From the NCBI GenBank assembly GCA_905199855.1, contig CAJKHY010000003.1, positions 6,823 to 70,822 of the forward strand: a stretch of DNA of 64,000 bases, written 5' to 3'. Below, one piece after another: positions 5,329 through 40,548 of this stretch. The DNA comes from an uncultured Clostridium sp. Lineage in GTDB: Bacteria; Bacillota_I; Bacilli_A; RF39; UBA660. The position numbers and the translations under genes are program-made. Each line of letters begins with the position of its first letter. The stretch's first letter is position 1. The notes under the pieces were generated by a model. The model had not been told where the DNA came from and did no database searches. It worked only from the letters and a program-made list of their open reading frames with translations.

Positions 5329-6379
5329 TTCCTTCTAAGGCTCTTTTCTGATTTTCGTTTATTAAGGCATCAATTATGATTCCTAATTCACCATCCATGA
5401 TGCGATCTAGATTCATTGATGTAAATCCAATTCGATGGTCGGTTACTCTATTTTGAGGGTAATTATAGGTTCTTATTTTTTCTGAGCGATCGCCAGTTCC
5501 TATTTTAATTCTTCTTTCAGCACTTTCTTTTTCTTCGTTTTCTTTTAATTTCAAGTCATATAATCTTGTTTTTAAGATTTTCATGGCTTTTTCTTTGTTT
5601 TTGATTTGGCTTCTTTCTGTTTGGGAATAAACAATGATACCTGTTGGGATATGGGTTAATCTTACTGCTGAGTCAGTTGTGTTTACGCCTTGTCCTCCAC
5701 AGCCACTTGAACGGGTGATATCTACTCGTACTTCTGATTCATCTAATTCAAAATCAAATTCTTCAGCTTCTGGCATGACTAAAACGGTTGCTGTTGAAGT
5801 ATGAACACGGCCTTGAGATTCGGTTTCTGGTACTCTTTGAACACGATGCGAACCACTTTCAAACTTTAATTTAGAATATGCTCCTTCTCCTTTAATCATA
5901 AATTCTATTTGGGCATATCCTCCAGCCGAACCTTCAACACTGTTTAAGATTTCACTTTTCCAACCATAGTTGGCTATATATTTTTGGTACATGTCATATA
6001 AATCGCCTGCGAAAATGTTGGCTTCATCTCCTCCTGCGGCTCCACGAATTTCTATGATAACATTCTTTTCATCATTAGGATCGTGTGGTAGTAATAAGAT
6101 TTCTAATTCTTTTTCAGTTTTGTTTTTTTCTTCTTCTAATCTAATTAATTCTTCTTTAGCAAACTCTCCTAATTCTTTATCGTGGATTAGTTCTTTACTT
6201 TCTTTGATATCATTTAATATTTTTTTATATTTGAGATATAGTTCTACTGTTTCTTTTAATCTTACTTGTTCTTTTGATAATTCGGTCATTTTTTTAATAT
6301 CTTTTAATACTTCTTCGCTTGATAGTAGGGAAGTTGTTTCGTCATATCTTTCTTTGATTTTTTCTAATCTTTCAATCAT
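5318..6379 (-). CDS. prfA: peptide chain release factor 1
   Basis: GGQ motif (SGCGGQGVNTTDSAVRLTHIPTGI) and RF1-type PxT region (RVQRVPETESQGR). Confidence 0.9.
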   Translation of the reverse strand: MIERLEKIKERYDETTSLLSSEEVLKDIKKMTELSKEQVRLKETVELYLKYKKILNDIKESKELIHDKELGEFAKEELIRLEEEKNKTEKELEILLLPHDPNDEKNVIIEIRGAAGGDEANIFAGDLYDMYQKYIANYGWKSEILNSVEGSAGGYAQIEFMIKGEGAYSKLKFESGSHRVQRVPETESQGRVHTSTATVLVMPEAEEFDFELDESEVRVDITRSSGCGGQGVNTTDSAVRLTHIPTGIIVYSQTERSQIKNKEKAMKILKTRLYDLKLKENEEKESAERRIKIGTGDRSEKIRTYNYPQNRVTDHRIGFTSMNLDRIMDGELGIIIDALINENQKRALEGNDK

Positions 6380-11360: not shown

Positions 11361-13238
11361 TTATTTTTTTTGAATTTTTATTATAAATTGATATTCGTTA
11401 GGTAAATCTAATTCGTCTACATCAACAATGTAACCTGATGCTTCTAAGTTATCTATTAGTTGTCTACTCATATTTAAGGCATTCCTTAAATAGTATGGAG
11501 AATATTCTTGTTTTGCTTGTGGTTGTTCTTCAAACGAAGGTGCCCCCTCTGTATTAAATTCTGGCAAGAATGGTTCTTCAATTTTTGATGGTTGAATGTT
11601 TGGTTGTGTTTCAACTGGAGAGGATACAAAAGTTGGATTATTGTTTTGTAGCGAAGGTTGAGTTGATGCTGTGATGCTTTCTTGAGTTGCAACTGGTTGA
11701 ATATTATTTACTGTTTCTTCTTGGGGTACGAACTGAGGTGTTATATTGTTTGAAATATTCTCTGGAGTTTGTTCAATTTTTTGGTTAGGTTCTAAATTAA
11801 TGTTTGAAATTGTTGGTTCTATTTTTGGTGTTTGAACACTTGGAATGTCATTTGTAGTTGGAGTTTGAATTGTATTTAAGTTAGGTAATGGCATCGTATT
11901 TTCAATAGATGATGTAGGCATTGGGGTAATATTTGATGCCATGGTTTCTGGAGTTGGCATTTCCCAAGTATTTATTGGATTATTTAAGTTTAGTTCTTGG
12001 TAAGATTCTGTAGGAGTTGCAATATTAACTTCTGGATGTGGTGTTTCTTTAGCCCCTTGTATATTTATTTGTTCAGGTTGATTTTGAAAATTATTTGGTA
12101 CTGCAGGTTGTGGTGTTGGTTCTACTAGAGTTGAATTTAATTCCGGCATATTAAATATAGGGGTAGGATTTATAGTTTGTGATGTTACTTCAGGGGTTTG
12201 TTCATTATTTACAGTATCAGGCATGTTTATTCTTTCTATATTAATTGGTTGTGGAGTTTGTGGTTGCATAGGTAAAGGCATTTCGACATTTTTTGCAGGT
12301 TCCATAAAGTTAGAGCCTGTGTTCATGTTTGTGCTTTCATCTTCTAGTGATGTGAAAAATTTGCCTGCGAATGAAAATTTTGGTTTTTCAACAGGTTGTT
12401 CTTGTTTTGGCATACTTTCATCTACTTTTAATAAATTGTTGATATCTGCAGTTTGCTCTTGATGATTTATATCTTGGGCTGATGCTTTAATTGCATCAAT
12501 GTTAATCATTTGTGTTTTATCCATTTTATCCTCCACTATTTCTGGTTCAACATCATCGAACGTATTTGATTTTTTATTTACTATATCAAGTCCTGATAGA
12601 ACTTTTTGCATATTAGGATTAATATCCATTTCCTCTACTTGTTCTTTGTTTTCTTTAATTATATCTTGGACTTGTTTAACTGTTAATCTTTCTTTTTTGA
12701 TTCTTTCTAGCATTGCATTTTCTTCCTGTTCATTTTCTAATTGAAGTAATGCTTTAGCATGTCCTTCGCTAATTTCATTATTTTGTAAAGCTTCTTGGAC
12801 ATTTTTACTTAATTTTAATAGTTTCATTTTGTTATTTATTTCTTTTTCTTCTTTAGACATTAAATTGGCTATTTCTTTAGTGTTACTATTTCCCGCTAGA
12901 TTTTGATAAGCTTTGGCTTCTTCAATTGGAGTAAGACTTTGTCTTTGAAGATTTTCAACGATGGCTAGTTCGGCACTTGCTTGGTCATTTATTTCCATAA
13001 TAATAGCTGGTACTTGGGTTAAACCTACTAAAGAGGCGGCTTTTAATCTTCGTTCACCTGCGATTACTTCATAACCATTAGGTATTTTTCTTAGAATAAG
13101 GGGTTCTATTATCCCATATTTTTTTATAGAGTTTGCCAATTCTTGTAGTGCTTTCTCATCAAATTTAATACGTGGTTGAAAACGGTTAGGTTTTATTTCA
13201 GTAATGTTTATTTGTTTTATTTCATTACTTTGTTGCAT
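11361..13238 (-). CDS. parB: ParB/Spo0J-family partition protein with a long low-complexity insertion
   Basis: ParB N-terminal domain with the IAGERRLKA motif and HTH. Then ~350 aa rich in P/T/N/Q, then a short C-terminal domain. Start set at MQQSNEIK with AAGGAGGG RBS; the ORF track extends to 13313. Confidence 0.75.
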   Translation of the reverse strand: MQQSNEIKQINITEIKPNRFQPRIKFDEKALQELANSIKKYGIIEPLILRKIPNGYEVIAGERRLKAASLVGLTQVPAIIMEINDQASAELAIVENLQRQSLTPIEEAKAYQNLAGNSNTKEIANLMSKEEKEINNKMKLLKLSKNVQEALQNNEISEGHAKALLQLENEQEENAMLERIKKERLTVKQVQDIIKENKEQVEEMDINPNMQKVLSGLDIVNKKSNTFDDVEPEIVEDKMDKTQMINIDAIKASAQDINHQEQTADINNLLKVDESMPKQEQPVEKPKFSFAGKFFTSLEDESTNMNTGSNFMEPAKNVEMPLPMQPQTPQPINIERINMPDTVNNEQTPEVTSQTINPTPIFNMPELNSTLVEPTPQPAVPNNFQNQPEQINIQGAKETPHPEVNIATPTESYQELNLNNPINTWEMPTPETMASNITPMPTSSIENTMPLPNLNTIQTPTTNDIPSVQTPKIEPTISNINLEPNQKIEQTPENISNNITPQFVPQEETVNNIQPVATQESITASTQPSLQNNNPTFVSSPVETQPNIQPSKIEEPFLPEFNTEGAPSFEEQPQAKQEYSPYYLRNALNMSRQLIDNLEASGYIVDVDELDLPNEYQFIIKIQKK

Positions 13239-17825: not shown

Positions 17826-18902
17826 CTAGTTTTTTCTTTTTTTTAATCTTTTGTTCATGTTATGAAGGGCTACACCGTTCATGATTAAATTACCATGTTT
17901 GTATTCTTGATATTGAAGTCGGTTTGCCTCTTCGATGTCTTCTCCACCAAAGTATAGTATTTTAATACTTTCTTTTAGTTTTTTTAGTTTTTCTAGTCTT
18001 TCTGTTGGTGTACTTCTTACTTCGTCTTTTTTATAGTTATCACATTTTGATACTATAAATTTTTTCATTTCTCCATTTTCTTTTATTTCTTGGATTCCTT
18101 CAGTTATAAAGTCGTAAGAATCTATTCTTGATTTAATACGGTCTTTTATTTTAGGACAAAGTGTTGCTGTAGCATTTTGACAACTAAAGCATAGATGGTT
18201 TTGACTTTTAGTGTAAATTATGTCTATTAAATCTGCAAATATGTTTTGTGATAATTCATAAATTCCATTATTAATGTTATTCGTTTTGGTGTATGAAGCA
18301 AATATTTCATTTATTGGTGTATTTATTTTTTTATTTTCTAATTCTCTTATTGTTCTTTCTGGTAATCTTAATAATAAGTTAGTATAATATGTCATTATCA
18401 TTTCTTTTATCATGATAGATATTGTGGCTTTTTTATTATTTATTAAACTTTTTTCTATATATTTGACATTATTGTTAACTTTGTTTTTTGTTATCTTTTT
18501 TGTAGATGTGTAAAGACTTAATGGAATAAGGTGGTTCTGTTTTAAGATGTCATTTACTATTGTAGATGTGTAAAAACTTAATGGAATAAGGTAGTACTGT
18601 TTTAAGATGTCATTTACTATTTGTAATAGTTCTTCTTCTGTTTTTGCTTCATTTATTTTTTTTATGATGTTACTTGTTTCATTTAATGAACAATGGGCGT
18701 TTAATTCGTTTGTTATTGATTTTGCTTTTCTTATGATTTCACTTTTTTCCTTGCTAGGTAATTTTATGATGTCTTCTTGGCTTAAGATGTTTTCAAAACA
18801 TTTATCTTTTTTAGTAAAATATGGTATGAAATTACTTCTTTTTATTTTTTCTACCTCAGCAATTTGTCCGTTTTCTTTTTTAATTATAATACTTTTTCCC
18901 AT
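17826..18902 (-). CDS. hypothetical protein (ORF-B) with an internal 20-aa tandem duplication and a Cys-rich C-terminal half
   Basis: 358 aa from MGKSIIIKKENGQIAEV. The start is chosen because a perfect sigma-A promoter and GGGGG RBS lie immediately upstream; the track's longer ORF reaches 19037. Contains HLCFSCQNATATLCP…SKCDNY. Confidence 0.5.
   Translation of the reverse strand: MGKSIIIKKENGQIAEVEKIKRSNFIPYFTKKDKCFENILSQEDIIKLPSKEKSEIIRKAKSITNELNAHCSLNETSNIIKKINEAKTEEELLQIVNDILKQYYLIPLSFYTSTIVNDILKQNHLIPLSLYTSTKKITKNKVNNNVKYIEKSLINNKKATISIMIKEMIMTYYTNLLLRLPERTIRELENKKINTPINEIFASYTKTNNINNGIYELSQNIFADLIDIIYTKSQNHLCFSCQNATATLCPKIKDRIKSRIDSYDFITEGIQEIKENGEMKKFIVSKCDNYKKDEVRSTPTERLEKLKKLKESIKILYFGGEDIEEANRLQYQEYKHGNLIMNGVALHNMNKRLKKRKN
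18501..18620. repeat. 2 x 60-bp direct tandem repeat (~95% identity) inside ORF-B, in frame
   Basis: tgtagatgtgtaaagacttaatggaataaggtggttctgttttaagatgtcatttactat repeated; encodes IVNDILKQYYLIPLSFYTST / IVNDILKQNHLIPLSLYTST. Confidence 0.9.
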
Positions 18903-18970
18903 ATAAAATTCCCCCTTTTTTTGAAATATGACTCGTATTATAGCACGTTTGTTTTTGTTTGTCAAGTTTT
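18903..18970 (-). promoter_or_regulatory. Consensus sigma-A promoter plus leader of ORF-B: TTGACA-17-TGcTATAAT, RBS AAGGGGGAA
   Basis: Reverse complement reads CTTGACAAACAAAAACAAACGTGCTATAATACGAGTCATATTTCAAAAAAAGGGGGAATTTTATATG. About 80% identity over 56 nt to the ORF-A promoter/leader. Confidence 0.65.
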
Positions 18971-19021
18971 TTATTCGAGTGGGAGGAGTACTAAAAACAA
19001 TAACAAAAGAAAAAAGAAGAA

Positions 19022-20371
19022 TTATTTTCCTAGACAAAATCTTTTAAACATTTCGTCTAGCATTTCTTCTTTATATGTAGCACCGATTATTTCGCCTAGT
19101 ATGTTCCATGCTTCTTTGATATCTATTTCTAATAGATATGGTTCTATTCCTTGACGTGTTTTATTAATTACTTCTTTTAGAATGTCATGGGCTTTTTTTA
19201 GTAATCCGATGCTTCTTGCACTTGTTAGATAATTCATATCTGTTGTTTCTATTTTATCAATGTTAAATAAGTATTTTATTTTGTTTTTTAAATCATCTAT
19301 TCCTATATTATATTCTGCACTTATTTTAACTATGTTTTCATGGTTAATTTCTTCAATATTGGTAGGTAAGTCTATTTTATTTAAAACAATTATACTTGTT
19401 TTGTTTTTAATTAATTCTAATAAATATTTATCTTCTTCTGTTAATTGTTCATTACTGTTTAAGATAAGTATTATTAGGTTACTATTTTCTATAACTTCTT
19501 TGCTTTTGTTTACTCCAATTTGTTCTACAATATCATTTGTCTCTCTTATTCCTGCAGTATCAATTAGGTGGATAGGAATGTTATCTATTTGGATTGTTCC
19601 TTCGACAATATCTCTTGTTGTTCCTGCAATATTGGTTACTATTGCTTTGTTTTCTTCTAAGAGTGTATTTAGTAAACTGCTTTTTCCAACATTTGGCCTA
19701 CCTATTAGACATACTTTTATTCCTTCGGTTATTATTTTCCCATTTTCGCTTTGAGTTATTGTATCTTCTAGGCTTTTGTTTACTTCTTTTAGAATTGGTA
19801 ATATTTTTTCATTGTTAATAACTTCGATATCATCGTATTCTGGGTAATCAATGTTTACTTCAATATTAGAGATTACTTGAATTAGTTTATCTCTTAGAGA
19901 TATTATCTTATTTGAAACATTACCACTTAATTGGTTGATTGATAGTTTTCTGGATGTTTCTGTTTTGGCTTCGATTAGATTCATGATACCATCGGCCTCG
20001 ATTAGGTCAATTCTTCCATTTAAAAAGGCTCTTTTGGTGAATTCTCCTGGTTCTGCTAGACGAATACCTTTTTGAATAAGTAATTCTAATACTTTATTAG
20101 TTGTGGATATACCTCCATGGCAATTTATTTCGACAATGTCTTCTTTGGTATAGGTTTTAGGACTTTTCATGATGCTTATTAGGACTTCATCTATTATTTC
20201 TTCTTTGTTTACGATATGTCCATAGTGAATGGTATGGGTGTTTACTTTGGTTAAATCTTTTCCTTTAAATATTTCATTTACTAATGGTATTGCATCTTTG
20301 CCACTTACTCTTATGATGGATATAGCTCCAACTCCTAAGGCCGTTGATATACCTGCAATTGTATCATTCAT
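19022..20371 (-). CDS. mnmE: tRNA modification GTPase MnmE/TrmE
   Basis: 449 aa; G-domain GRPNVGKSSLLN, DTAGIRE; C-terminal CLGK motif. Confidence 0.9.
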   Translation of the reverse strand: MNDTIAGISTALGVGAISIIRVSGKDAIPLVNEIFKGKDLTKVNTHTIHYGHIVNKEEIIDEVLISIMKSPKTYTKEDIVEINCHGGISTTNKVLELLIQKGIRLAEPGEFTKRAFLNGRIDLIEADGIMNLIEAKTETSRKLSINQLSGNVSNKIISLRDKLIQVISNIEVNIDYPEYDDIEVINNEKILPILKEVNKSLEDTITQSENGKIITEGIKVCLIGRPNVGKSSLLNTLLEENKAIVTNIAGTTRDIVEGTIQIDNIPIHLIDTAGIRETNDIVEQIGVNKSKEVIENSNLIILILNSNEQLTEEDKYLLELIKNKTSIIVLNKIDLPTNIEEINHENIVKISAEYNIGIDDLKNKIKYLFNIDKIETTDMNYLTSARSIGLLKKAHDILKEVINKTRQGIEPYLLEIDIKEAWNILGEIIGATYKEEMLDEMFKRFCLGK

Positions 20372-24283: not shown

Positions 24284-24599
24284 TATTACACCTCCAAAGT
24301 TCTTTTTTTAATATAAAATGCTATTTTATTATATAGGTGTTTTATTTTAAAGTCAATAAAAATTTTTATTTTGTCTATTTTTTTGTTATGATACAAGTTA
24401 TTTATAGTTGATATTGACATTAGCAAATAATGTCTTTTTTTATTAGAATGTTGTATCCTAAATAAGGTATGTTTCTATTTTTTAACTAAATTTTTCTTGT
24501 GATAACGGCGTAGCAAAGGCATAAGAAAATTAAAATTGGTGTTTTAAAAATTATAGTTTTGGTGTATAATGGTTTTAAGAATAGAATTTGGGTGATTAT

Positions 24600-26366
24600 A
24601 TGTTTAAGAGGATACTTGCTATTAGTAAGAATTATGCTTTTGTAGAGATAGATAATTTAATGAGTGAAGATTTGCTTAATTATTATGTTATTTTTGTCGA
24701 TGATGATAAGAAGTTTCTTGGCGAGGTTAATGAGGTAGATGGTAATAGGGTTAAGATTACTTTTTTAGGCGAATTTATTAATGATAAGTTTGTTAGTGGT
24801 ATTATTAGAAAACCTAGTTTGACTTCTAATATTAGAATTATTAACAATATTGAGCTCGATGAGTTAATGGGGACTGTTAATGATAAGAATATGGTTCTTG
24901 GTTTATCTCCTTTATATAATGATCATCCAATTAATATAGATATTAATAGTATGTTTAGTAACCATAGTTCAATATTTGGTAACACAGGAAGTGGTAAAAC
25001 ATATGGGGTTGCTAGAATTTATCAGTCTTTGTTTGATAGAAATGATATTATTCCTTTTAATGCTAATATTTTTATATTTAATTCAACTAATGAGTATCAT
25101 AATTCTTTTTCTTCTATTAATAAGTTTAATATTAATTATAATTATAAGATGTATACGACTAATACTAATAATAAGGATAGTTTAATTATTAAGTTGCCTC
25201 TTTGGCATTTAACTGTTGATGATTATGCTAATTTACTTGATGTTTACGAATATTCACAGATTAATATTATAGAGAAGATGTTATCCTATGTATGTGCTTT
25301 TGCTAAGAATGATGAGTATTCAATAAGATATAAGAATCATTTGATAGCTTCTGCAATTATATCAGTTATGTATACGAATCAAACGGCTTTTAGGATAAGG
25401 GATCAAATATTTAATATTCTTAGTACTTGCAGTACAAAAGATTTAAATTTGGATTATGAAATTCCTGGTGTTGGATATACTAGAACTTTTAGAAAATGTT
25501 TTGATATTGATAGTCAAGGAGAATTTGTTGAGCGATTACTTGTTTCTAAATATGTGGAACAGTTTGTTGATAATAATACGAAATGGAATGAAGATTATAC
25601 TCCCATTTATTATACTTTAGAGGATTTAGAGATAGCTTTAAACTTTACTTTGATTAGTGAAGGATTACTTTTAAATGAAAAATATTATGCGGAGGCGATT
25701 GCTTTAAAAGTAAAGTTGCATTCTATTATTAATAGTTCTTATCATAAATTTTTTGATTATAATAGATTTGTTAGTTTGACTGAGTTTATTACTGATATCG
25801 TGGTTAATAAAGAAAATAAAAGATGTCAAATAATTAATTTTGTCTTAGAAGATGTGGATGATAGATTTGCTAAGGCTTTAACTAAGATTTATTCAAGATT
25901 ATTTTTTAAGTTTGCTAGAAGTTTGCCTCAGCGTGGGACATTTCCTATGCATATTTTATTGGAAGAAGCCCACAGATATGTGCAAAACGATGCAGATACT
26001 AGGACTTTAGGTTATAATATTTTTGAGAGAATTGCTAAGGAAGGTAGAAAATATGGGGTAATTTTAGATTTGGTTACTCAAAGGCCTACGGAATTATCCG
26101 AATCAGTTATTTCTCAGTGTAGTAACTTTTTGATTTTTAAGATTAATCACCCAACTGATTTAGATTATATTGGTAAAATGGTTCCTAATATTACGGATGA
26201 TATAATTGAAAAGCAAAAAAGTTTGCAGTCTGGGATATGCGTAGCGTTTGGCAAGATGATGAAGTTACCTATGATAGTTAAGATGAAACTTCCTAATCCT
26301 CCTCCTAGCTCCGCGAATGCTGATGTATATGATAAATGGATGTTTAATTTAAAAGGTAGATATTAA
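24600..26366 (+). CDS. HerA/DUF87-family ATPase (HAS-barrel + RecA-like hexameric ATPase), standalone
   Basis: Walker A GNTGSGKTYG; Walker B/catalytic ILLEEAHRY; HerA-type C-terminal block GRKYGVILDLVTQRPTELSESVISQCSNFLIFKINHPTDLDYI; ~125-aa N-terminal barrel-like region. Confidence 0.7.
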   Translation: MFKRILAISKNYAFVEIDNLMSEDLLNYYVIFVDDDKKFLGEVNEVDGNRVKITFLGEFINDKFVSGIIRKPSLTSNIRIINNIELDELMGTVNDKNMVLGLSPLYNDHPINIDINSMFSNHSSIFGNTGSGKTYGVARIYQSLFDRNDIIPFNANIFIFNSTNEYHNSFSSINKFNINYNYKMYTTNTNNKDSLIIKLPLWHLTVDDYANLLDVYEYSQINIIEKMLSYVCAFAKNDEYSIRYKNHLIASAIISVMYTNQTAFRIRDQIFNILSTCSTKDLNLDYEIPGVGYTRTFRKCFDIDSQGEFVERLLVSKYVEQFVDNNTKWNEDYTPIYYTLEDLEIALNFTLISEGLLLNEKYYAEAIALKVKLHSIINSSYHKFFDYNRFVSLTEFITDIVVNKENKRCQIINFVLEDVDDRFAKALTKIYSRLFFKFARSLPQRGTFPMHILLEEAHRYVQNDADTRTLGYNIFERIAKEGRKYGVILDLVTQRPTELSESVISQCSNFLIFKINHPTDLDYIGKMVPNITDDIIEKQKSLQSGICVAFGKMMKLPMIVKMKLPNPPPSSANADVYDKWMFNLKGRY

Positions 26367-26389: not shown

Positions 26390-26735
26390 ATGAAAAAAGA
26401 GTTATCCACAGTAAAATGTGGAATAAATTTTCTATTTGTTGTCTAATTGTGTAAAAATTTGACACATTTTTGGTACTAAATACAAGAAAAAAGAAAAGTT
26501 ATCCACATAACGAATAAGTTATCCACATGTGAGGATGGGTGTTGATAATAATATACACATAAAATTTTTTTTGTGTAAATTTGTGGAAAAAAGAAGAAAT
26601 CCTTATAAAATATATAAAATATAAGTGGAATTTTGTGTGGAAAAACTGAGGATAGTTAGTATTTTTTAAAAAAATTCTTTTCATTTTCCACATTATAGTG
26701 TAAAATATAGATAGAAATCCAAAAAATAAGGAGTA
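26390..26735. promoter_or_regulatory. oriC upstream DnaA-box cluster and dnaA promoter region
   Basis: Perfect TTATCCACA boxes at 26404, 26507 and 26525. Near-consensus boxes TGTGGAAtA, TGTGGAAAA (x2) and TTTTCCACA. TTGACA promoter at 26459. Confidence 0.85.
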
Positions 26736-26741
26736 ATGGTT

Positions 26742-28094
26742 ATGGATACATTAGTAATTTGGAATAGTTTTTTAGAAAAAATTAAAGAACAGGTTTCTTC
26801 TTTATCTTACGAAACTTGGTTTAAGGATACGAAATTAGTTAGTTTAGATAATAATACCGCGACTGTTATTGTCCCTATGAACTTACATAAGAAGCATTTA
26901 AAAGAAAATTATATTTCTTTAATGGAAGATATTTTTAATAGTATTACGGGTACTAATTTTACTTTTTCTTTCTTACTTGAAGAAGAATACGAGACAGAAA
27001 CTGTAGTAGAAGATGTGGATGTTGGAGTACCTAAGTATCATAGGGAAGATGCTAATTTAAAACCAAATTACACTTTTGAATCATTTATTATTGGTGAAAG
27101 CAATAAGTTTGCTTATACTGCTGCGATGTCGGTAGCAGAAAAACCTGGAAAAGCTTATAATCCTTTATTTTTGTATGGTAAAAGTGGTTTAGGTAAAACA
27201 CACTTAATGCATGCAATAGGTAATTATATTATAAATAATACTAATTTAAAGGTTTTATATGTTACTAGTGATGATTTTGTTAACGATTTTATTAGAGTAG
27301 TACGCAACAAGGATAAGGAAAATTTTGAATTAATTAATACTTTTAAGGCAAAATATAGAAATGTGGATGTTTTAATGATTGATGATATTCAGTTTTTAGA
27401 AAATGCGGCTGCTACACAGCAAGAATTTTTTCACACATTTAATGAGTTATATAATTCTAATAGGCAAATCATCATTTCTTCCGATAGATCGGTTAATGAT
27501 TTAAAGTTACTTGAGGATAGACTTAGGACACGTTTTGCTTGTGGACTTACTGCAAATATTTTTCCACCCGATCTGAAATTAAGCAAGGATATTATAAAGA
27601 AAAAGATAATGTATCAAGAATCAGCCAAAGACATACCAGAAGATGTAATTGATTATATTGCTAATAGTTTTAGTACTGATGTTAGGTCATTAGAAGGGGC
27701 TATTACTAGGGTATTTGCTTATTCTTTAATGATGGGGCATGGGGAAATTACTTTAGACATTGCAGTTGATGCTTTAAAAGATCAAATGATTAAATCTTGT
27801 AATTTTAAGAATGATATACATCGTATTCAAATGGTGGTAAGTGATTATTTCCACATAAAAGTGGAAGATTTAAAGGGAAAGAAAAGGTCTAAGTCGATTG
27901 CTTTTCCTAGACAGATAGCAATTTACCTGTGTAGAACTTTAACTAATGAGTCTTTCCCTAGAATAGGTGGTTATTTTGGTGGAAGAGACCATTCAACAAT
28001 AATGCATTCTTATGATAAAATAAGTGTGGATATGAAAAATAATGAACAAGTTAAAGAAATAATAAAAGATATTAAAAAAACTTTATCTAATTAA
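26742..28094 (+). CDS. dnaA: chromosomal replication initiator DnaA
   Basis: AAA+ Walker A LFLYGKSGLGKTHL, box VII, C-terminal DNA-binding domain; start at the second ATG (8-nt spacing to AAGGAG). Confidence 0.95.
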   Translation: MDTLVIWNSFLEKIKEQVSSLSYETWFKDTKLVSLDNNTATVIVPMNLHKKHLKENYISLMEDIFNSITGTNFTFSFLLEEEYETETVVEDVDVGVPKYHREDANLKPNYTFESFIIGESNKFAYTAAMSVAEKPGKAYNPLFLYGKSGLGKTHLMHAIGNYIINNTNLKVLYVTSDDFVNDFIRVVRNKDKENFELINTFKAKYRNVDVLMIDDIQFLENAAATQQEFFHTFNELYNSNRQIIISSDRSVNDLKLLEDRLRTRFACGLTANIFPPDLKLSKDIIKKKIMYQESAKDIPEDVIDYIANSFSTDVRSLEGAITRVFAYSLMMGHGEITLDIAVDALKDQMIKSCNFKNDIHRIQMVVSDYFHIKVEDLKGKKRSKSIAFPRQIAIYLCRTLTNESFPRIGGYFGGRDHSTIMHSYDKISVDMKNNEQVKEIIKDIKKTLSN

Positions 28095-28226
28095 CTTGTG
28101 TAAAGTTATTTGACATTATGCACAAGAAAAAATGTTAAAAACACTTATAAAATAAGAGATAGTAAAGTTATCCACAGTTATCCACAATATAATCATTAAT
28201 AAAAAAATAAAGAAAGAAGGTATATT
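28095..28226. promoter_or_regulatory. oriC downstream part: two tandem DnaA boxes plus an AT-rich putative unwinding region between dnaA and dnaN
   Basis: TTATCCACAgTTATCCACA at 28168-28186, preceded by ~70 bp of >80% AT. Confidence 0.8.
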
Positions 28227-29393: not shown

Positions 29394-29462
29394 AAATTCG
29401 ACAATATGTGTGTGTTAAAGTACAAGCCATATATATTTATATATATGTTTGGAGGTGATATA

Positions 29463-29930
29463 ATGGATTATTTTATTACGCAAGAGACATTACTTATTAT
29501 GCCAATTACGAAAACACAGACTAAGATATTAGAAAATGATAATGTCATGTTTGTTGATTCTAAAACATTCAAAATTGTAAATGATAATTGTAAGTTATAT
29601 GGAAGTACTTATTTGAATAGAGTAGAGTTTAGTAAAACAATACTTAAGTGTAGATGCAAAATGCCTATAATTTTAGATAATGATGGAAATATAATACTTT
29701 TTCCAACAACTTCTAAGCGTCAAGAACATTGTGCATGGTTAAATTATAATAATATTAAGTCTTATAAAGAACAGGGTTCAAAAAACGTAGTTGTTACCTT
29801 TTTAAATGGTATTAAGATTGTTATTAATATGTCATATTATACATTTGAGCACCAAATAAATAAATGTCATAGATTAAAATTGGATTATTTGGAAAAAAAA
29901 GTTTCAATTGTATACAAAAATGCCAGATAA
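29463..29930 (+). CDS. comK: ComK-family competence transcription factor-like protein
   Basis: Blocks IILFPTTSKRQEHCAWL and VVVTFLNGIKIVINMSYYTFEHQI align with B. subtilis ComK IFLFPTLSSTRPQCGWI and TEVTFSNGKTMELPISYNSFENQV; GGAGGTG RBS. Confidence 0.65.
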   Translation: MDYFITQETLLIMPITKTQTKILENDNVMFVDSKTFKIVNDNCKLYGSTYLNRVEFSKTILKCRCKMPIILDNDGNIILFPTTSKRQEHCAWLNYNNIKSYKEQGSKNVVVTFLNGIKIVINMSYYTFEHQINKCHRLKLDYLEKKVSIVYKNAR

Positions 29931-30033: not shown

Positions 30034-33077
<3,044 letters not shown>

Positions 33078-33089
33078 GAGGTGTAGAAA

Positions 33090-35684
33090 ATGGATAATGA
33101 TAATAATTTAAACGAACTATTGAATATGGCAATGAATGACAATGATGTGGATAACAAAGAGGTAGATAATAATACGGATGTTGAGAATGTTGATGATGAG
33201 ATGGTAAATACTGATTTTGGTGGAACATTTCATGAACATGATAGTTTAACTGAGAATAATATAGTTGATGAGGTAAGCAAGAGTTTTTTACAATATTCTA
33301 TGAGTGTTATTACTTCAAGAGCATTGCCTGATTTGCGTGATGGATTAAAGCCTGTTCATAGGAGAATTTTGTGGAGTATGTTTTGTTCAGGTTATACTCC
33401 AGATAAACCTCATAGAAAATCAGCAAAGACTGTTGGTGAGGTTATGGGTAATTACCATCCACATGGTGATTCTTCAATATATGAAGCAATGGTAAGAATG
33501 GCTCAAGATTTTAATGAGCGATATTTACTTATTGATGGACATGGTAATTTTGGTAATATTGAGGGTGATGGCGCGGCGGCAATGCGTTATACTGAATCAA
33601 GGTTATCTAAACTTTCACTAGAATTGCTTAGGGATATTAAGAAAAACACAGTTGATATGACTAAGAATTTCGACGAATCTTTGGATGAGCCAACGGTATT
33701 GCCTAGTAGGTTTCCAAATATTTTAGTTAATGGAACAATGGGTATCGCGGTAGGTATGGCCACAAATATTCCTCCTCATAATTTATGTGAGGTAATTGAT
33801 GGTTGTATAGCATATATAGATAATCCTGATATTGATACTTTAGGTTTAATGCAATATATTAAGGGGCCTGATTTTCCAACTGGTGGTATTATTTTAGGAA
33901 ATTCTGGTATTCGTAAGGCTTATGAAACTGGTCGTGGTTCTATTACGATTCGTAGTAAAGCTATAATTGAGGAAGGTACTAATCATAGTAATATAATTAT
34001 TACTGAGGTTCCATATGGTGTTAATACAATGGAGCTAAAGAATAAGGTGGCAGAATTGGTTAGGGATAAGGTAATTGAAGGTATTTCTGATTATCATACT
34101 GATTTGAAGGATGGTGTGAAGATTACAATTACTTTGAAGCGTGATGCTAATCCTCAAGTTATTTTAAATAATTTATATAAGCATACTAATTTGCAGGTAC
34201 AATATGGAATTATTTTCTTAATGATAGATAATAAGACACCAAGAACTTTAGGGTTAAAGGATATTATTGCTAAATATATTGATCATCAAAAAGAAGTTAT
34301 TATAAGGCGTACAAATTTCGATTTGGAAAAAGATGAGAAGCGTGTGCATATTTTAGAGGGGTATAAGATAGCTCAAGATAATATTGATGAGGTTATTAAT
34401 ATAATTAAGACTGCTAAAACAGATATTATTGCTAAGGAAAAGTTAATGTCAAGGTTTGGGCTTACTGATATTCAATCTGATGCTATTTTGGAATTGAAGT
34501 TACGTCGTTTAACTGGTCTAGAAAGAGATAAAATTGAGACTGAGTTAAGGGATTTGTTGCTTGAAATTGAAGATTTACGTTCTATTTTGGCTTCAAATGA
34601 AAAGATTCTTAATATTATTAAGGAAGAGCTGTTGGAGGTTAAGTCTAAATATGGTGATGAGAGAAGAACTAAAATTGATATGACCGCAATTGATTACATT
34701 GATGATGAGTCTTTGATACCTGAAGAGAATATTGTTGTTACTTTGACAGGAAAAGGTTATATTAAGAGATTACCTGTGGATACTTATAAAACGCAAAATC
34801 GTGGTGGTGTAGGTATTAAGGGTATGAGTACGAATGACGAAGATTATGTGGAAAACATGATTGAAGCTAGTTCTCATGATTATATATTATTCTTTACTAA
34901 TAATGGTAAGGTTTATCGTATTAAGGGTTATGAGATACCAGAGTATAGTAGGCAGTCAAAGGGGTTACCAATTATTAATTTGTTAAATTTAGAGAAAAAC
35001 GAAAAGGTTGCTGCTTTAATTAGGATTGCTAATGACGATGAGAGTAATAATTTAGTTTTTGCTACAAAGAGTGGTTTAATTAAGAGGACTGCAATTAGTG
35101 AATTTAATAATATTAGAAATAATGGTAAAAAATTTATTACTTTGCGCGATGATGATGAGTTAATATCTGTTGAAAAGACTACTGGCGATAACGATATATT
35201 AATGGCTTCTTCTAATGGTAGAATGGTTCGTTTTAATGAGAATTCTATTAGAGTTATGGGTCGCGGAGCTGCAGGAGTAAGAGGTATTAATTTAGAAGGT
35301 GGATTTTTGGTTGGTATGTCTAAGGCTGTGGATAATCAACAAGTATTGGTTGTTACTGAAAGGGGTTATGGTAAAAAAACTGATATTAGTGAGTATCGCA
35401 TTACTAATCGTGGTGGTAAAGGTGTTAAGACTTTAAATATTACTGATAAGAATGGATCAATTGTAGCATTTAAAACAGTAAATTGTAATAGTGATTTAAT
35501 GATTATTACTAATGAGGGTATTGTGATTAGATTAGATATAGATAAGATTTCTACTATGAGTCGTGTAACTCAGGGTGTAAAGCTTATAAATCTTAGGGAA
35601 AATCAATGTGTATCTTCAATAGCTGTTGTTGATAAGATAATTGAGGATGATTCTAATGTTGATGATGAAGTTACAAATAATTAG
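33090..35684 (+). CDS. gyrA: DNA gyrase subunit A
   Basis: Active-site region [11 protein letters not shown]; QRDR-like segment [15 protein letters not shown]; C-terminal beta-pinwheel repeats. Confidence 0.95.
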
Positions 35685-35864
35685 TAACTTCTTTTTTTAG
35701 AAGAAATGTTTGTGTTTTTTTACAAAATGTATTTTATTTATTACAAAAATTGTGGATAACTCATATTTATTAAACCAAATTAGGGATATTATTTAGTTAA
35801 ATAAATGTGGAAAGAATAATTTTGTTATTAAATGAGTGATTATATAGTAGCCTTATTAAGAATA

Positions 35865-36010
35865 ATGTTTCACGTGAAACATAGTATAATCTCAATAAAA
35901 TATATAGAGTTAGTATTATAATTAATGTTTCACGTGAAACATAGTATAACCTCAATAAAATATATAGCGTTAATATTAAAATTAATGTTCCACGTGAAAC
36001 ATAGGGCGTA
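35865..36010. repeat. 2.4 copies of a 60-bp tandem repeat, each carrying the 18-bp perfect palindrome ATGTTTCACGTGAAACAT followed by TAGTATAAT
   Basis: Palindromes at 35865-82, 35925-42 and 35985-36002 (third has 1 mismatch); the units differ at only a few positions. Confidence 0.9.
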
Positions 36011-36142
36011 GTTAAAATTAATTATATGGACATATATAGGATAAAAACTAAAAGAGAATATTAATATTTTTGTGTGGATAAATTTTTATTTTTTTTATAT
36101 AAATGCTTGATTTATTTTTATAATTAATGTATATTATTTATT

Positions 36143-36224
36143 GATGCAACAATAATGTTGAAAATGAGTCAGGATCGGGAGATAGCAGCTATAACAACCT
36201 CTTATTGTGTGCATCTTTTTTTTT
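36143..36224 (+). ncRNA. ffs: small signal recognition particle RNA (4.5S/scRNA-type)
   Basis: GUCAGGAUCGGGAGAUAGCAGC matches SRP domain IV consensus GUCAGGUCCGGAAGGAAGCAGC, with a compensatory pair and GNRA tetraloop. Long imperfect hairpin GAUGCAACAAUAA…UUAUUGUGUGCAUC followed by a T9 terminator. TTGATT-17-TATATT promoter upstream. Confidence 0.75.
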
Positions 36225-36348
36225 GTAGTAATGTAGATAAGTGTTTTTTACATATTAATGAACAAATGTTTTCTATAAAAAAATATTGACATAGTATATA
36301 CTTTTTGATATACTATAAAGTTATATAGATAGTAGTGGGTGGTAAGTT

Positions 36349-36777
36349 GTGGATAACTATTATATGAACTTAGCTATTAAGATGGCAAGGTTTGCTTATA
36401 TGAGAAATGAAGTTCCTGTTGGCGCGGTTGTTATTAATTGTGATAATAATATGGTTACAAAGGGGTATAATCAAAAAAATTCTTCTAAATTGGTTACTAA
36501 GCATGCTGAGATAATAGCAATTGAACGAATGTGTAAAAAAATTGGTGATTGGCGTTTAAGTAATTGCGTTTTATATGTAACATTAGAACCTTGTTTGATG
36601 TGTATTGGTGCAATAATTGAATCACGTATTAAAAAAGTAGTTATAGGATGTAATAATAGTCATAATCGAGATTTAATTGACATATTGAAAAAAAATAAGA
36701 TTGAGGTTGTGGAAAATGTTTTGAGTAATGAATGTTGTATGATTTTAAAAGACTTTTTTAAAGCAAAAAGAAAATAA
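36349..36777 (+). CDS. tadA: tRNA-specific adenosine deaminase TadA (CDA fold)
   Basis: HAEIIAIE…TLEPCLMCIGAI zinc-binding motifs; position upstream of dnaX as in B. subtilis. Confidence 0.8.
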   Translation: MDNYYMNLAIKMARFAYMRNEVPVGAVVINCDNNMVTKGYNQKNSSKLVTKHAEIIAIERMCKKIGDWRLSNCVLYVTLEPCLMCIGAIIESRIKKVVIGCNNSHNRDLIDILKKNKIEVVENVLSNECCMILKDFFKAKRK

Positions 36778-36822
36778 TCTTCATTTTTGTGTTATAATTA
36801 ATTTGATTGGAGGTTTGATAGT

Positions 36823-38520
36823 TTGAAATATTTAGCTTTATATCGTAAATATAGACCTTCTAGGTTTGAGGAAATATCTGGACAAGAAGGTGTAGTTGGT
36901 GTTTTAAAGAATGCTATTAAAACTGGACGTATTTCTCATGCTTATTTGTTTTGCGGTCCACGTGGAACAGGTAAAACTACTACGGCAAAGTTACTTGCTA
37001 AGATGGTTAATTGTACTAATCCAATTGATGGAGAACCTTGTGGAAAATGCGAAAGTTGTTTGAGTATATTTAATAATACTAATGATGATATTATTGAGAT
37101 TGATGCTGCTTCTAATAATGGTGTAGATGAAATTAGAGAGTTGAGAGATAAAATTAATTTAGTTCCATCTAATTCAAAATATAAGGTTTATATTATTGAT
37201 GAAGTACATATGCTTACTGTTGGAGCCTTTAATGCCTTGCTTAAAACCTTGGAAGAACCACCTAGCCATGTAATCTTTGTTCTTGCTACTACTGAGACTT
37301 ATAAGGTTCCACTTACAATTTCTTCTAGATGCCAAAAATTTAGATTTGATAAAATAACTGTGGATAACATAGTAAAAAGGCTTGAAGAAATTTGTAATAT
37401 TGAAAAAATAGTTGTTTCTAGTGATATTTTGAATGAAATAGCGCGTTTGGCAGATGGTGGGATGAGGGATGCTATTAATTTATTAGATCAGCTTGTTAGT
37501 TATAAGGGCAATGATATAACTATAAATGATGTTTATGATATTACAGGTCTTGTTTCTTATGAAATAATCTATGAATTGTTGTTAAGCAGTTATAATAAAG
37601 ATATGTCATCAATAGTTAAAATATTAGATGATATTAATTATAGTGGGAAAAATATTTCTAAATTTATTGAAGAAATTATATTGTTTTTAAAAGATGTACT
37701 TGTTTATAAGAATATTACTGATTATTCTTTAAATTTGGATAAACTTAACAAAGTTAAAGAAATTAGTGATTTGTATGATAATAATTTAATTTATAATTAT
37801 GTTAATGAATTAAATAATGTACTTAATAATATTAAAAATTCCAGTTATCCCTTGCTTCTTTTAGAAGTTGCTTTGATAAAATTAGTTAATTTAGAAAAAA
37901 AAGAAGAATCTATTTTAGAAAAAGTCAATGTCAAGGAAAGTAAAAATAATGTAAAAGCAGAGAAAAATACTAGTAATATGTCTATAAAAAATGATATAAT
38001 TAAAGAAGATGTTTTTCCTAAATTATCTAATGAAGAATTGAAGCATATCAGTTATTTAAAAGAAGTTAGGGTAAACAATGCTTTTGTAAGTGCAAATAAA
38101 AGTTTGCTTAACAAATTTAAAGAAAAATGGTCCCTTGTATTTGAATATTTGACAAATGATAAGTATGAGAATATTGTAGGATTACTTAAGGATGTTAATG
38201 TTGTTGTGGCAGGAAAAGAGAATTTAATATTTCAGTCAAAGTTTTCTTCAGTAGCGGCATCTTTGAATAGTCAAAGTGAATTATTAAGTGAATTATTTTA
38301 TGAAATATATGGTGTTAATTATAAAACTATTGTACTTAGTAACAGCGAATGGGATTATGAGAAAAAAAAGTATATTGATAATTTGAATAATAAATATGTA
38401 TATGAAATGAAGGTGGAAAAAACTAAGGGACAGAATGATATTAAGTATGAAAAAAGTAGTAATTTAGGTGCAAATGATTTAGTAGATATATTAGGGGCAG
38501 AGGTTATTGAATATAAGTAA
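36823..38520 (+). CDS. dnaX: DNA polymerase III subunit tau/gamma
   Basis: TTG start with GGAGG RBS; Walker A GPRGTGKTT; Zn module CGKCESC; SRC motif. Confidence 0.9.
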   Translation: MKYLALYRKYRPSRFEEISGQEGVVGVLKNAIKTGRISHAYLFCGPRGTGKTTTAKLLAKMVNCTNPIDGEPCGKCESCLSIFNNTNDDIIEIDAASNNGVDEIRELRDKINLVPSNSKYKVYIIDEVHMLTVGAFNALLKTLEEPPSHVIFVLATTETYKVPLTISSRCQKFRFDKITVDNIVKRLEEICNIEKIVVSSDILNEIARLADGGMRDAINLLDQLVSYKGNDITINDVYDITGLVSYEIIYELLLSSYNKDMSSIVKILDDINYSGKNISKFIEEIILFLKDVLVYKNITDYSLNLDKLNKVKEISDLYDNNLIYNYVNELNNVLNNIKNSSYPLLLLEVALIKLVNLEKKEESILEKVNVKESKNNVKAEKNTSNMSIKNDIIKEDVFPKLSNEELKHISYLKEVRVNNAFVSANKSLLNKFKEKWSLVFEYLTNDKYENIVGLLKDVNVVVAGKENLIFQSKFSSVAASLNSQSELLSELFYEIYGVNYKTIVLSNSEWDYEKKKYIDNLNNKYVYEMKVEKTKGQNDIKYEKSSNLGANDLVDILGAEVIEYK

Positions 38521-38542
38521 TTAAAGAAAGGAAGATGTTATT

Positions 38543-38839
38543 ATGAATATGCAAGCAATTATGAGACAAGCTCAACAAATGCAAAGTGAAATTATGAAAA
38601 TACAAAAGGAGTTAGAAAAAACAGAATACGAAGGAAATTCTTCGCTGGTTACAGTTGTTTTGAACGGAAAAAAGGAAATGTTAAAGTTAACTATTAAAGA
38701 TAAAGAAAATTTAAACAGTGATGATATGGATATATTAGAGGATATGGTAGTTGTGGCTTTTAATGAGGCTATGAAAAAAGTAGATGTTGACAAAGAAAAA
38801 AAGTTAAGTAAATATCAAGGGTTAGCAGGTATGATGTAA
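38543..38839 (+). CDS. ybaB: nucleoid-associated protein YbaB/EbfC
   Basis: 98 aa; dnaX-ybaB-recR synteny; typical N-terminal MNMQAIMRQAQQMQ. Confidence 0.85.
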   Translation: MNMQAIMRQAQQMQSEIMKIQKELEKTEYEGNSSLVTVVLNGKKEMLKLTIKDKENLNSDDMDILEDMVVVAFNEAMKKVDVDKEKKLSKYQGLAGMM

Positions 38840-38840
38840 G

Positions 38841-39437
38841 ATGTATCCTAAAAATATTAAAGATTTAATGGAATGTTTTGAGTTATTACCTGGTATTGGT
38901 GAGAAAACAGCAGAAAGGTTAAGCTTTTCTTTGATTAATTTTGATAAGGATAAATTAACTGAGTTTGCTGATTCAATTATTGGTATTAGAGATAATATTA
39001 AAAATTGTAAGATATGTAACAATATAACTGATAAAGATATATGTTATATATGTGAAAATAGAAATCGGAAAAATGGGACGATTTTTGTTGTGGAAAATCC
39101 TAAAGATGTTATTTTGTTTGAAAAATTGGGTATTTATAAAGGTGAATATCATGTATTGGGTGGTTTAATTTCACCGCTTGACGGAATAAATCCTGAGGAT
39201 ATTAGTGTAGATAATTTAATTGAGAGAATTAAGAATGGAAAATATACGGAAATTATTGTGGCTTTGAAACCTAGTGTTGAAGGTGAAACGACAGTGCAAT
39301 ATATTAAAAAAATGCTTGAAGGATATGATATTAAAGTTAGTAAAATTGCTAGTGGAGTACCAATTGGTGCTGAGATAGAGTATATTGATCCTATGACTTT
39401 AGAAATGGCTTTGGAAGAGAGAAAATATTTATCATAA
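38841..39437 (+). CDS. recR: recombination protein RecR
   Basis: HhH N-terminus; C4 zinc finger CKICNNITDKDICYIC; Toprim. Confidence 0.9.
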   Translation: MYPKNIKDLMECFELLPGIGEKTAERLSFSLINFDKDKLTEFADSIIGIRDNIKNCKICNNITDKDICYICENRNRKNGTIFVVENPKDVILFEKLGIYKGEYHVLGGLISPLDGINPEDISVDNLIERIKNGKYTEIIVALKPSVEGETTVQYIKKMLEGYDIKVSKIASGVPIGAEIEYIDPMTLEMALEERKYLS

Positions 39438-39476
39438 TAGTAAGAAAGTAACATAGTATTTACTGGGTGAATTATT

Positions 39477-39665
39477 ATGTTAAAAAAAATATTTAAATTA
39501 GTTAAAAAGATTGTTGTATCTGGTTTGGTAATATATGCTTATAATGTGTTGGCTACTCCTATAAATGCGACAATTCCAATTAATTTTATAACACTTTTTA
39601 CAGTGGCAATATTAGGTATGCCATGTTTAGCAGGTTTTATAATTTTGATGCTTATTTTTTATTAA
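39477..39665 (+). CDS. small membrane protein, BofA-like (pro-sigma-K processing inhibitor) by position and shape
   Basis: 62 aa, two TM helices, …ILGMPCLAGFIILML C-terminus; follows recR as bofA does in B. subtilis. Confidence 0.4.
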   Translation: MLKKIFKLVKKIVVSGLVIYAYNVLATPINATIPINFITLFTVAILGMPCLAGFIILMLIFY

Positions 39666-39678
39666 AGATGGTGATTTT

Positions 39679-40548
39679 ATGTTGGATGATTACAAAGATG
39701 GACAAGTTATATTTTATAATGTACTTAGTATGGCAATAAAAAACAATAAAATATCACATGCTTATTTGTTTGAAAATAAAGGAAATGATAAATATATAGA
39801 AATCATTTTATCATTTGTTAAGGCTATTTTGTGTCCAAATAATTATTTTAATAACGAAAAATGTGGAGAATGTTTGCAATGCTTGAGAATTGAAAATGGT
39901 AATTATCCTGAAATAAAAATTATTAAACCTGAAGGAATGTGGATAAAAAAAGAACAATTAATGGATTTGCAAGAAGCATTTAATAAAACAGCAATTGAAG
40001 GTAGTAAAAGAATATATATAATTTTGGAATGCGAAAAATTAAATAAGCAGGCAGCTAATTCAATTTTAAAATTTTTAGAGGAACCAAATGATGATATTAT
40101 TGCTTTATTAGTTACAAATAATAAGGATTTAGTATTAGATACTATTAAATCTAGGTGTCAAGATATATTGATCTTAGCTGATAATGAAGTTAATTTTGAC
40201 TCGTTGATGATTAATGATGTTCTAGATTTTATTAGAGTATTAGAAAATAAGAAAAAAGATACTATTATATATGCTAAACCTTTATGGCTTACTAAATTTA
40301 AGGATAGAAATAGTTTTATAAAAGCCATAGATATTATGATATATTTTTATAATGATGTTTTACTTTTTAAATTAGGTTGTGATTTAAAATATTTTAATAA
40401 TTATTATGATGATGTTACTAATATTAATGGTTCTATTGATGAGATTATAAAAAAAATAAAAATTTTGATAGAAAATGAATATTTAATTAGGTACAATTTA
40501 AATTTGAATTTACTTATTAATAAAATAATTATAGAATTTGGAGGTTAA
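39679..40548 (+). CDS. holB: DNA polymerase III delta-prime subunit
   Basis: 289 aa; degenerate AAA+ with a Zn-module-like CGECLQC. Confidence 0.75.
   Translation: MLDDYKDGQVIFYNVLSMAIKNNKISHAYLFENKGNDKYIEIILSFVKAILCPNNYFNNEKCGECLQCLRIENGNYPEIKIIKPEGMWIKKEQLMDLQEAFNKTAIEGSKRIYIILECEKLNKQAANSILKFLEEPNDDIIALLVTNNKDLVLDTIKSRCQDILILADNEVNFDSLMINDVLDFIRVLENKKKDTIIYAKPLWLTKFKDRNSFIKAIDIMIYFYNDVLLFKLGCDLKYFNNYYDDVTNINGSIDEIIKKIKILIENEYLIRYNLNLNLLINKIIIEFGG

Follow-up and report, generated by a model that had tools for sequence, protein, structure and literature searches.

We found that the three 18-bp palindromes between gyrA and ffs in the window (the whole 64-kb stretch of DNA that was analyzed) are very probably chromosomal parS sites, i.e., predicted loading sites for ParB/Spo0J, which together make up a short tandem array in this spacer; this assignment is based on sequence identity, origin-proximal position and conservation in the clade. 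Because the palindrome is the textbook bacterial centromere site, no new regulator is needed, and the kind of element is already known: canonical parS at its expected place. This corrects the sequence-only reading in which the palindrome had been flagged, and there is no longer reason to regard it as the site of an “unknown regulator”.

A tandem array of parS sites between gyrA and ffs

The array, its sites and its neighbors are as follows.

33090-35684, plus strand: gyrA, left boundary of the array spacer (NCBIfam NF004043, TIGR01063; gyrA 1112-1139 bits)
35854-36004, no strand: 60-bp tandem repeat, the parS array of 2.5 units (Tandem Repeats Finder), with homologous units in relatives L086 and L087
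35865-35882, no strand: parS site 1, perfect 18-bp palindrome ATGTTTCACGTGAAACAT; its core, 35866-35881, is consensus parS
35925-35942, no strand: parS site 2, same sequence as site 1 (zero mismatches to ATGTTTCACGTGAAACAT)
35985-36002, no strand: parS site 3, ATGTTCCACGTGAAACAT, one mismatch to ATGTTTCACGTGAAACAT
36133-36230, plus strand: ffs (small SRP RNA), right boundary of the array spacer (Rfam RF00169, 50.4 bits)
36349-36777: tadA, downstream of ffs (NCBIfam)
36823-38520: dnaX, downstream of tadA (NCBIfam)

The repeat has a 60-bp period, 91% matches and a Tandem Repeats Finder score of 235; its 2.5 copies agree with the 2.4 copies noted from sequence alone, and the location between gyrA and ffs given there was confirmed by NCBIfam and Rfam matches. 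When positions 35400-36600 were read directly, the palindromes were found exactly 60 bp apart, in AT-rich spacer after the end of a long ORF. They had been described as three perfect inverted repeats at this spacing, which is correct for the spacing and for copies 1 and 2, whereas copy 3 carries one mismatch. When up to three mismatches were allowed, ATGTTTCACGTGAAACAT was matched three times in 64 kb, where 0.05 matches would be expected, and 0 of 100 shuffles reached three. All of these matches fell in the array, and its palindrome was the only recurrent GC-containing palindrome in the window. The three copies may be a lower bound, because arrays of this kind may be collapsed in assemblies of short reads; many of the related contigs break off within their own arrays.

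The 16-bp core, TGTTTCACGTGAAACA, is identical to consensus parS at all 16 positions, and scanning with the consensus (TGTTNCACGTGAAACA / TGTTTCACGTGAAACA) gave 0, 0 and 0-1 mismatches at 35866, 35926 and 35986, respectively. The C of site 3 is at the fifth base, which we take to be the degenerate N in the B. subtilis form of parS, TGTTNCACGTGAAACA; among 287 related sites this position was T in 216 and C in 67. At both positions that discriminate parS from Noc-binding sites (G1 and A6), the sites of the window are parS-type. It has been reported that the consensus is TGTTTCAC-GTGAAACA (Jalal et al. 2020, PMC7383237) and that the 20-bp parS duplex of the ParB co-crystal is GATGTTTCACGTGAAACATC (PMC7383237), which contains the whole 18-mer of the window. 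Thus, the earlier statement that the palindrome matches no known Firmicute site does not hold, since its core is the consensus parS (PMC7383237). With regard to the three candidates proposed at that time, a replication- or segregation-related element was the right one and tandem promoters were not, whereas an array of operators for an unknown dimeric regulator was only loosely right, in that ParB is a dimeric site-specific DNA binder.

Besides, two other sequences of the window were observed. One is CGGTCCACGTGGAACA, located inside dnaX at 36954-36969, which has a palindromic CCACGTGG core and is three mismatches away from parS; it may be a chance occurrence or a degenerate site. The other is a second 60-bp tandem repeat at 18500-18621 (2.0 copies, 95% matches), whose sequence is unrelated to the parS unit. 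It lies inside an ORF on the minus strand (17826-19037, 403 aa) that had no family match, and is probably a 20-aa in-frame duplication.

The array is located close to the replication origin

The window covers the region around the replication origin of a spore-forming bacterium of the Bacilli with a low GC content (27.5%). Its left part has the gene order spoIIR, prmC, prfA, argS, class A PBP, ParB-family gene, rsmG, mnmG and mnmE, followed by jag, yidC, rnpA, HerA-like ATPase, dnaA, dnaN and comK in the middle and by recF, gyrB, gyrA, the array, ffs, tadA, dnaX, ybaB and recR in the right part. The best matches to the C-terminus of GyrA were 71-75% identical and came from MAGs of uncultured gut “Bacilli”, “Tenericutes” and “Erysipelotrichaceae”; the species of the window is present in many ENA gut assemblies. 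Origin-related features are listed below.

26402-28186, no strand: oriC region, with DnaA-box clusters on both sides of dnaA and a shift of AT and GC skew
35751-35759, 36073-36081 and 36348-36356, minus strand: three perfect DnaA boxes flanking the array, outside the repeat unit

The DnaA boxes around dnaA (26402, 26499 and 26519; 28168 and 28178) form clusters at 26402-26527 and 28168-28186, and both skews shift at about 24-28 kb. On the basis of these clusters and the skew shift, the array is origin-proximal, about 7.7 kb to the right of oriC and the dnaA-dnaN DnaA-box cluster. In total, the window contains 14 perfect DnaA boxes versus 0.93 expected. The DnaA boxes around the array, which had also been pointed out from sequence alone, are real, and the flanking boxes are kept in L086 and L087. 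However, only 16 of 76 gyrA-to-dnaX intervals (those of the window, L086 and L087 included) contained any DnaA box, and we therefore rejected these boxes as a general part of the element and regard them as local context.

Several further features of this region were observed. To the right of oriC (31283-39946) there are eight perfect DnaA boxes (31283, 33146, 35327, 35751, 36073, 36348, 37359 and 39938), all on the minus strand and several of them inside gyrB, gyrA and dnaX; the rightward replichore has a strong orientation bias of the DnaA 9-mer. A ComK-family gene (29406-29930, plus strand) is located between dnaN and recF, and the same insertion was found in L081 (425-859), so that it looks like a marker of the clade. 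The HerA-like ATPase gene (24588-26366, plus strand) is upstream of dnaA, directly after rnpA and ahead of the cluster of DnaA boxes. Its product weakly matched anti-phage-associated HerA models (138 bits versus a cutoff of 850), and the gene is absent at the equivalent position in L081.

parS sites are conserved at this position across the clade

Related loci were fetched via the C-terminus of GyrA (80 genomes) and via DnaN (80 metagenome contigs) and were scanned for the motif only afterwards; the comparison was therefore anchored by synteny and not conditioned on the motif. parS (up to two mismatches) was found in each of the 76 loci of the clade whose gyrA-to-dnaX interval was complete, with 2-18 sites per interval and a median of 4. 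The sites were always in the spacers between gyrA, ffs, tadA and dnaX. Similarly, in the DnaN-anchored 21-kb loci, consensus-like sites occurred only in gyrA-dnaX spacers, and single weak 2-mismatch matches were found elsewhere in L104 and L142. Contigs of Bacillus and Ectobacillus had no parS at the gyrA-dnaX position. It had been suggested in the sequence-only reading that conservation of the array be checked and that a motif lacking in relatives would speak against a function; at least two sites were present in all 76 syntenic intervals, and the motif occurred in all relatives.

In the 287 sites collected from 81 loci (80 GyrA-anchored loci and the window), information was confined to the 18-bp block A-TGTT[T/C]CACGTG[A/G]AACA-T, and both sides were at background. 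The outer A (280 of 287) and the outer T (273 of 287) were kept even though they were outside the search pattern. At least six sites were kept in 20 of the 81 loci scanned. As judged from these alignments, it is only the 18-bp palindrome that is conserved, whereas spacing and unit sequence turn over around it.

Variant palindromes were observed at the parS position in several lineages (L049, 5021-5078; L051 and L053, about 4972-5088; L148, 8621-8737). One of these variants, TATTTCACGTGAAATA, is the hybrid of parS and the Noc-binding site (NBS); the other is TGTTACACGTGTAACA. It has been reported that such a hybrid was preferred by Q-K-x-G ParB variants in the published scan. Such lineages may be cases in which the site and its reader co-vary.

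Spacing and copy number of the sites turn over rapidly

The repeat period ranged from 35 to 126 bp between lineages:

about 35 bp: L117, L122
43 bp: L004, with at least 13 units before the contig ends
60-61 bp: the window, L086, L087
about 75 bp: L009, L056
about 106 bp: L032, L107
119-126 bp: L109, L041
irregular, 100-200 bp: many other lineages

The spacer that holds the array reached up to 2.2 kb of non-coding DNA (L005). L086 and L087 are 83-91% identical to the window in nucleotide sequence across gyrA-dnaX. Both have a homologous unit of 61 bp, in 9 copies in L086 and 8 copies in L087, and contain 7 and 8 good parS sites, respectively, versus 3 in the window; L086 also has two decayed cores. 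These different unit counts indicate that parS copy number changes over short evolutionary times. L086 and L087 also differ from each other in the order in which unit variants occur. In both, the last unit agrees with the site 3 unit of the window in core and downstream flank, which suggests that the terminal unit of the window is orthologous to their last units. Units within arrays were 87-99% alike. Because they are recent copies, a comparison of core and spacer conservation within an array is only weakly informative, and it is the comparison across lineages that carries the argument.

Noc-binding sites and composite arrays

NBS is a 16-bp palindrome, TATTTCCC-GGGAAATA, that is unlike parS at two positions per half-site (PMC7383237). 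In the 1.49 Mb of clade loci we found 148 perfect NBS (ATTTCCCGGGAAAT), and NBS were present in the gyrA-dnaX interval of 40 of 76 relatives. In contrast to these relatives, ATTTCCCGGGAAAT had 0 matches in the window at up to two mismatches, and no NBS was found within one mismatch in L086 and L087 (21 kb each); in all, the origin-region DNA sampled from the species (about 106 kb) had no NBS.

In several relatives, NBS (TATTTCCCGGGAAATA) were observed to alternate with parS inside tandem units downstream of gyrA. The arrays with both kinds of site include the following, and similar parS/NBS alternation was found in L040, L044, L056, L108 and L021.

L041 (OZ006970.1, complete MAG), 4976-5681: 5.6 copies of a 126-bp unit with parS and, 59 bp later, NBS
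L109, 17408-17900: composite parS/NBS array
L004, 5139-5994: four NBS at a 74-bp period, then at least 13 parS at a 43-bp period

The titles and abstracts retrieved on parS, Noc, NBS and origin made no mention of composite parS/NBS arrays, which is weak evidence for novelty.

Candidate readers of the sites

One ParB-family gene was identified in the window.

11361-13238, minus strand: sole ParB-family gene of the window (product 625 aa), with Pfam domains ParB_N and HTH_ParB, directly after rsmG

Its start codon is at 13238 behind AAGGAGG, and a 625-aa product was also called in L175. The best PDB matches of the protein were Noc and Spo0J. The gene occupies the noc position, as in the rsmG-noc-parA-parB operons of other gut Bacilli, and the order is the same in B. 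subtilis. An alignment of the helix-turn-helix region gave E173-K179-K184-G201 as the specificity residues of the protein (Caulobacter numbering). Since the same E-K-K-G residues were found in other samples of the species (P0001-P0004), they are not a sequencing error. The positions are R173/T179/A184/G201 in Caulobacter ParB and Q/K/K/R in B. subtilis Noc. A deep mutational scan of Caulobacter ParB showed that parS-specific variants had an invariable R173 (PMC7383237), and that NBS-specific variants mostly had Q173 (R being allowed) and R201 (PMC7383237). Judged by these residues, the E-K-K-G combination is of neither the parS-binding ParB class nor the Noc class of the Caulobacter scaffold, and the 625-aa protein is unlikely to be the reader of the array. 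Its syntenic orthologues in relatives were Noc-type (Q-K-[N/S/A]-R), and the nearest orthologues had Q-K-T-G (L084) and K-K-T-G (L085). The presence of NBS in the loci of relatives and their lack in the window agree with this difference.

After the HTH, the protein has a P/Q/N/T-rich low-complexity linker of ~350 aa that leads to a short C-terminal domain, and we take this domain to resemble the C-terminus of Noc. B. subtilis Noc has an N-terminal membrane-targeting helix. The 625-aa protein and its clade orthologues appear to be without such a helix, because in them the conserved PNRFQPR motif is preceded by only about 8-10 residues.

A parS-type ParB (R173...G201) was found neither in the 64-kb window nor in ~10 kb beyond either of its ends (same-species contigs), nor within 10 kb of dnaN in relatives, and the window had no gene for ParA/Soj. 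Across about 84 kb around oriC there was only one ParB-family gene. These negative results, together with E173 in the single family member, speak against the parS reading of the array. Homologues of its product were Noc-type or atypical. The nearest canonical ParB family that was recovered (P0033-like, R-T-K-G) was always in rsmG-noc-parA-parB operons of other gut Bacilli lineages. On the other hand, a Noc-type (Q-K-x-R) orthologue and a canonical parS array occurred on the same contig in L110, L116, L118, L122, L125 and L131, and also in L143, L150, L154-L161 and L164. Because genomes with Noc-type orthologues keep canonical parS arrays, a separate parS-type ParB must exist in the clade, and we infer that such a protein is encoded elsewhere in the genome to which the window belongs.

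These observations may be joined in a broader interpretation, which we offer tentatively and consider possible but somewhat doubtful: the centromere of the clade would be a plasmid-like, fast-evolving array in the gyrA-ffs-tadA-dnaX region, composite (ParB and Noc) in many lineages, and the window would represent a derived, parS-only state. Each composite unit would load ParB at parS and Noc at NBS. In the derived state, the Noc orthologue of the window would have lost its NBS-reading residues (Q173 to E, R201 to G) and NBS would have vanished, with the reader of parS either encoded far from the origin or supplied by a re-targeted Noc orthologue. If true, origin segregation and Noc function would be coupled at a single locus.

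Proposed function of the array

It has been reported that ParB nucleates at parS, binds CTP, closes and slides off, giving rise to the partition complex (reviews PMC7333895, PMC7022226). By analogy with the ParB literature, we infer that a ParB dimer would recognize each 16-bp site through its helix-turn-helix, and that the clamp would then slide onto flanking DNA and leave the site free for reloading. Adjacent sites would raise the loading rate at one locus, which could result in one large origin-proximal partition complex. Such a complex would mark or position the origin for segregation and, in Firmicutes, recruit SMC condensin; ParB binding, clamp loading and the link to SMC and segregation are predicted by this analogy. 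The array would grow and shrink by tandem duplication and deletion of whole units, and selection would keep just the 18-bp palindrome unchanged. No lineage has fewer than two sites and many have 6-18, which argues that site multiplicity is under selection.

Alternative explanations

The number of sites could also be explained without such selection, if a single site mattered and the extra copies were neutral products of replication slippage, so that the array as such had no function. In several species one parS is enough for segregation (reviews PMC7022226, PMC7333895), the units of an array have arisen by recent duplication (87-99% alike), close relatives differ in copy number, and two units of L086 have decayed cores, all of which would be consistent with this possibility. 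However, at least two sites in 76 of 76 lineages and at least six in 20 of 81 loci were retained despite complete turnover of spacer and period, and irregular arrays (L028 and L029) keep perfect sites among unalignable spacers, which is unexpected for neutral copies; we consider this explanation improbable. A different possibility concerns the reader: the E-K-K-G protein at the noc position may have been re-specified from NBS back towards parS, with the array as its loading platform. This would agree with the presence of only one ParB-family gene in about 84 kb around oriC, with a G at position 201 as in ParB (R as in Noc in the orthologues of relatives), and with the lack of NBS in 64 kb of the window and in 21 kb each of L086 and L087, where relatives have ~1 per 10 kb. 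Besides, the parS-parS distance of 60 bp in the window matches the parS-NBS distance of 59 bp in L041 and L109. Yet E173 belongs to neither the parS class (invariable R) nor the NBS class (mostly Q), and the parS arrays kept by Noc-type relatives point to a separate reader in the clade, so that re-specification of this protein also seems quite unlikely. An E-K-K-G Noc orthologue in a species without NBS in its sampled origin-region DNA is a natural case for the published ParB/Noc specificity-switch model.

It is highly improbable that the palindromes are operators of a transcription factor other than ParB, or tandem promoters driving ffs or tadA. Dimeric regulators typically bind palindromes, TATAAT follows copy 1, and weak promoter-like matches (GTGAAA-16-TAAAAT) overlap two units, but with 16/16 positions identical to parS no other reader has to be assumed. 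It had been claimed that TAGTATAAT follows every copy. We found it only after copy 1, with TAGTATAAC after copy 2 and TAGGGCGTA after copy 3; TATAAT is thus intact in one of three copies, and it is conserved neither in L086 and L087 nor across the clade. The homologous units of L086 and L087 have TAGGTGATAAC and similar sequences in place of TAGTATAAT, and positions beyond the 18-mer were at background in 287 related sites. Promoter-like matches were as frequent as in shuffles (8 versus 8.8), and for each gene a better promoter-like site lies beyond the array, on its downstream side (for ffs TTGATT-17-TATATT, which ends at 36135, and for tadA TTGACA-17-TATACT, which ends at 36314). Sigma-70 tandem promoters were therefore rejected: a -10 element in one of three units, only 9/12-quality matches at shuffle frequency, and no conservation.

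Other candidates were also considered and rejected. An intrinsic terminator of gyrA was not supported, as no terminator-like site was detected in 35600-36450. With regard to structured RNA, only the SRP RNA passed Rfam, and matches of rox2 and mir-3116 on the repeat were far below gathering scores. A MITE or other mobile, plasmid or phage origin was rejected because the unit had no blastn match in PLSDB and INPHARED and the motif occurred nowhere else in the window; a match to a known repetitive family, the other outcome that would have spoken against a function in the sequence-only reading, was likewise not seen among plasmid and phage repeats. Finally, CRISPR does not fit, since the spacers are mutually homologous (91% matches between whole units) and no cas domains were found among the annotated ORFs of the window.

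Comparison with known systems

Like the chromosomal parS of Firmicutes and most bacteria (TGTTNCACGTGAAACA), the array has the identical 16-bp sequence, an origin-proximal position and multiple copies. In genomes with many sites, such as those of B. subtilis, Streptomyces and Listeria, parS are scattered over tens to hundreds of kb and are often inside genes. In contrast, the sites described here are in head-to-tail repeat units packed into one intergenic spacer, their copy number differs between close relatives, and no parAB operon was found near the origin. The NBS of Bacillus and Staphylococcus resemble parS in that a ParB-family CTP clamp is loaded at a 16-bp palindrome; unlike in NBS systems, the sites of the window are parS-type at G1 and A6, and the window has no NBS.

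The number of parS per genome is known to vary from 1 to about 20-23 (PMC7333895), and why this number varies and what drives the clustering of sites have been listed as open questions (PMC7333895). The clade offers dozens of natural alleles at one locus, with 2 to at least 18 sites, periods of 35-126 bp, and with or without Noc sites. This material is suited for tests of site number and spacing against ParB clamp loading, and of co-loading of ParB and Noc.

In its architecture, the array is like sopC of the F plasmid, whose 12 direct repeats are 43 bp long and each contain a 16-bp inverted repeat to which SopB, a ParB-family protein, binds (PMC3177203). Both are tandem direct repeats with one ParB-type palindrome per unit (2.5 units in the window and up to 18 sites in relatives), and L004 even has the same 43-bp period, in at least 13 units. 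Unlike sopC, however, the array is chromosomal, in core synteny (gyrA, ffs, tadA and dnaX) and not on a plasmid; its palindrome is the universal chromosomal parS rather than the SopB box; it is not adjacent to parA or parB; and it has no sequence similarity to plasmid or phage records. What departs from the described cases is the occurrence, in this clade, of sopC-like tandem arrays on the chromosome, with fast turnover of copy number, frequent interleaving of Noc sites and no partition operon near the origin.
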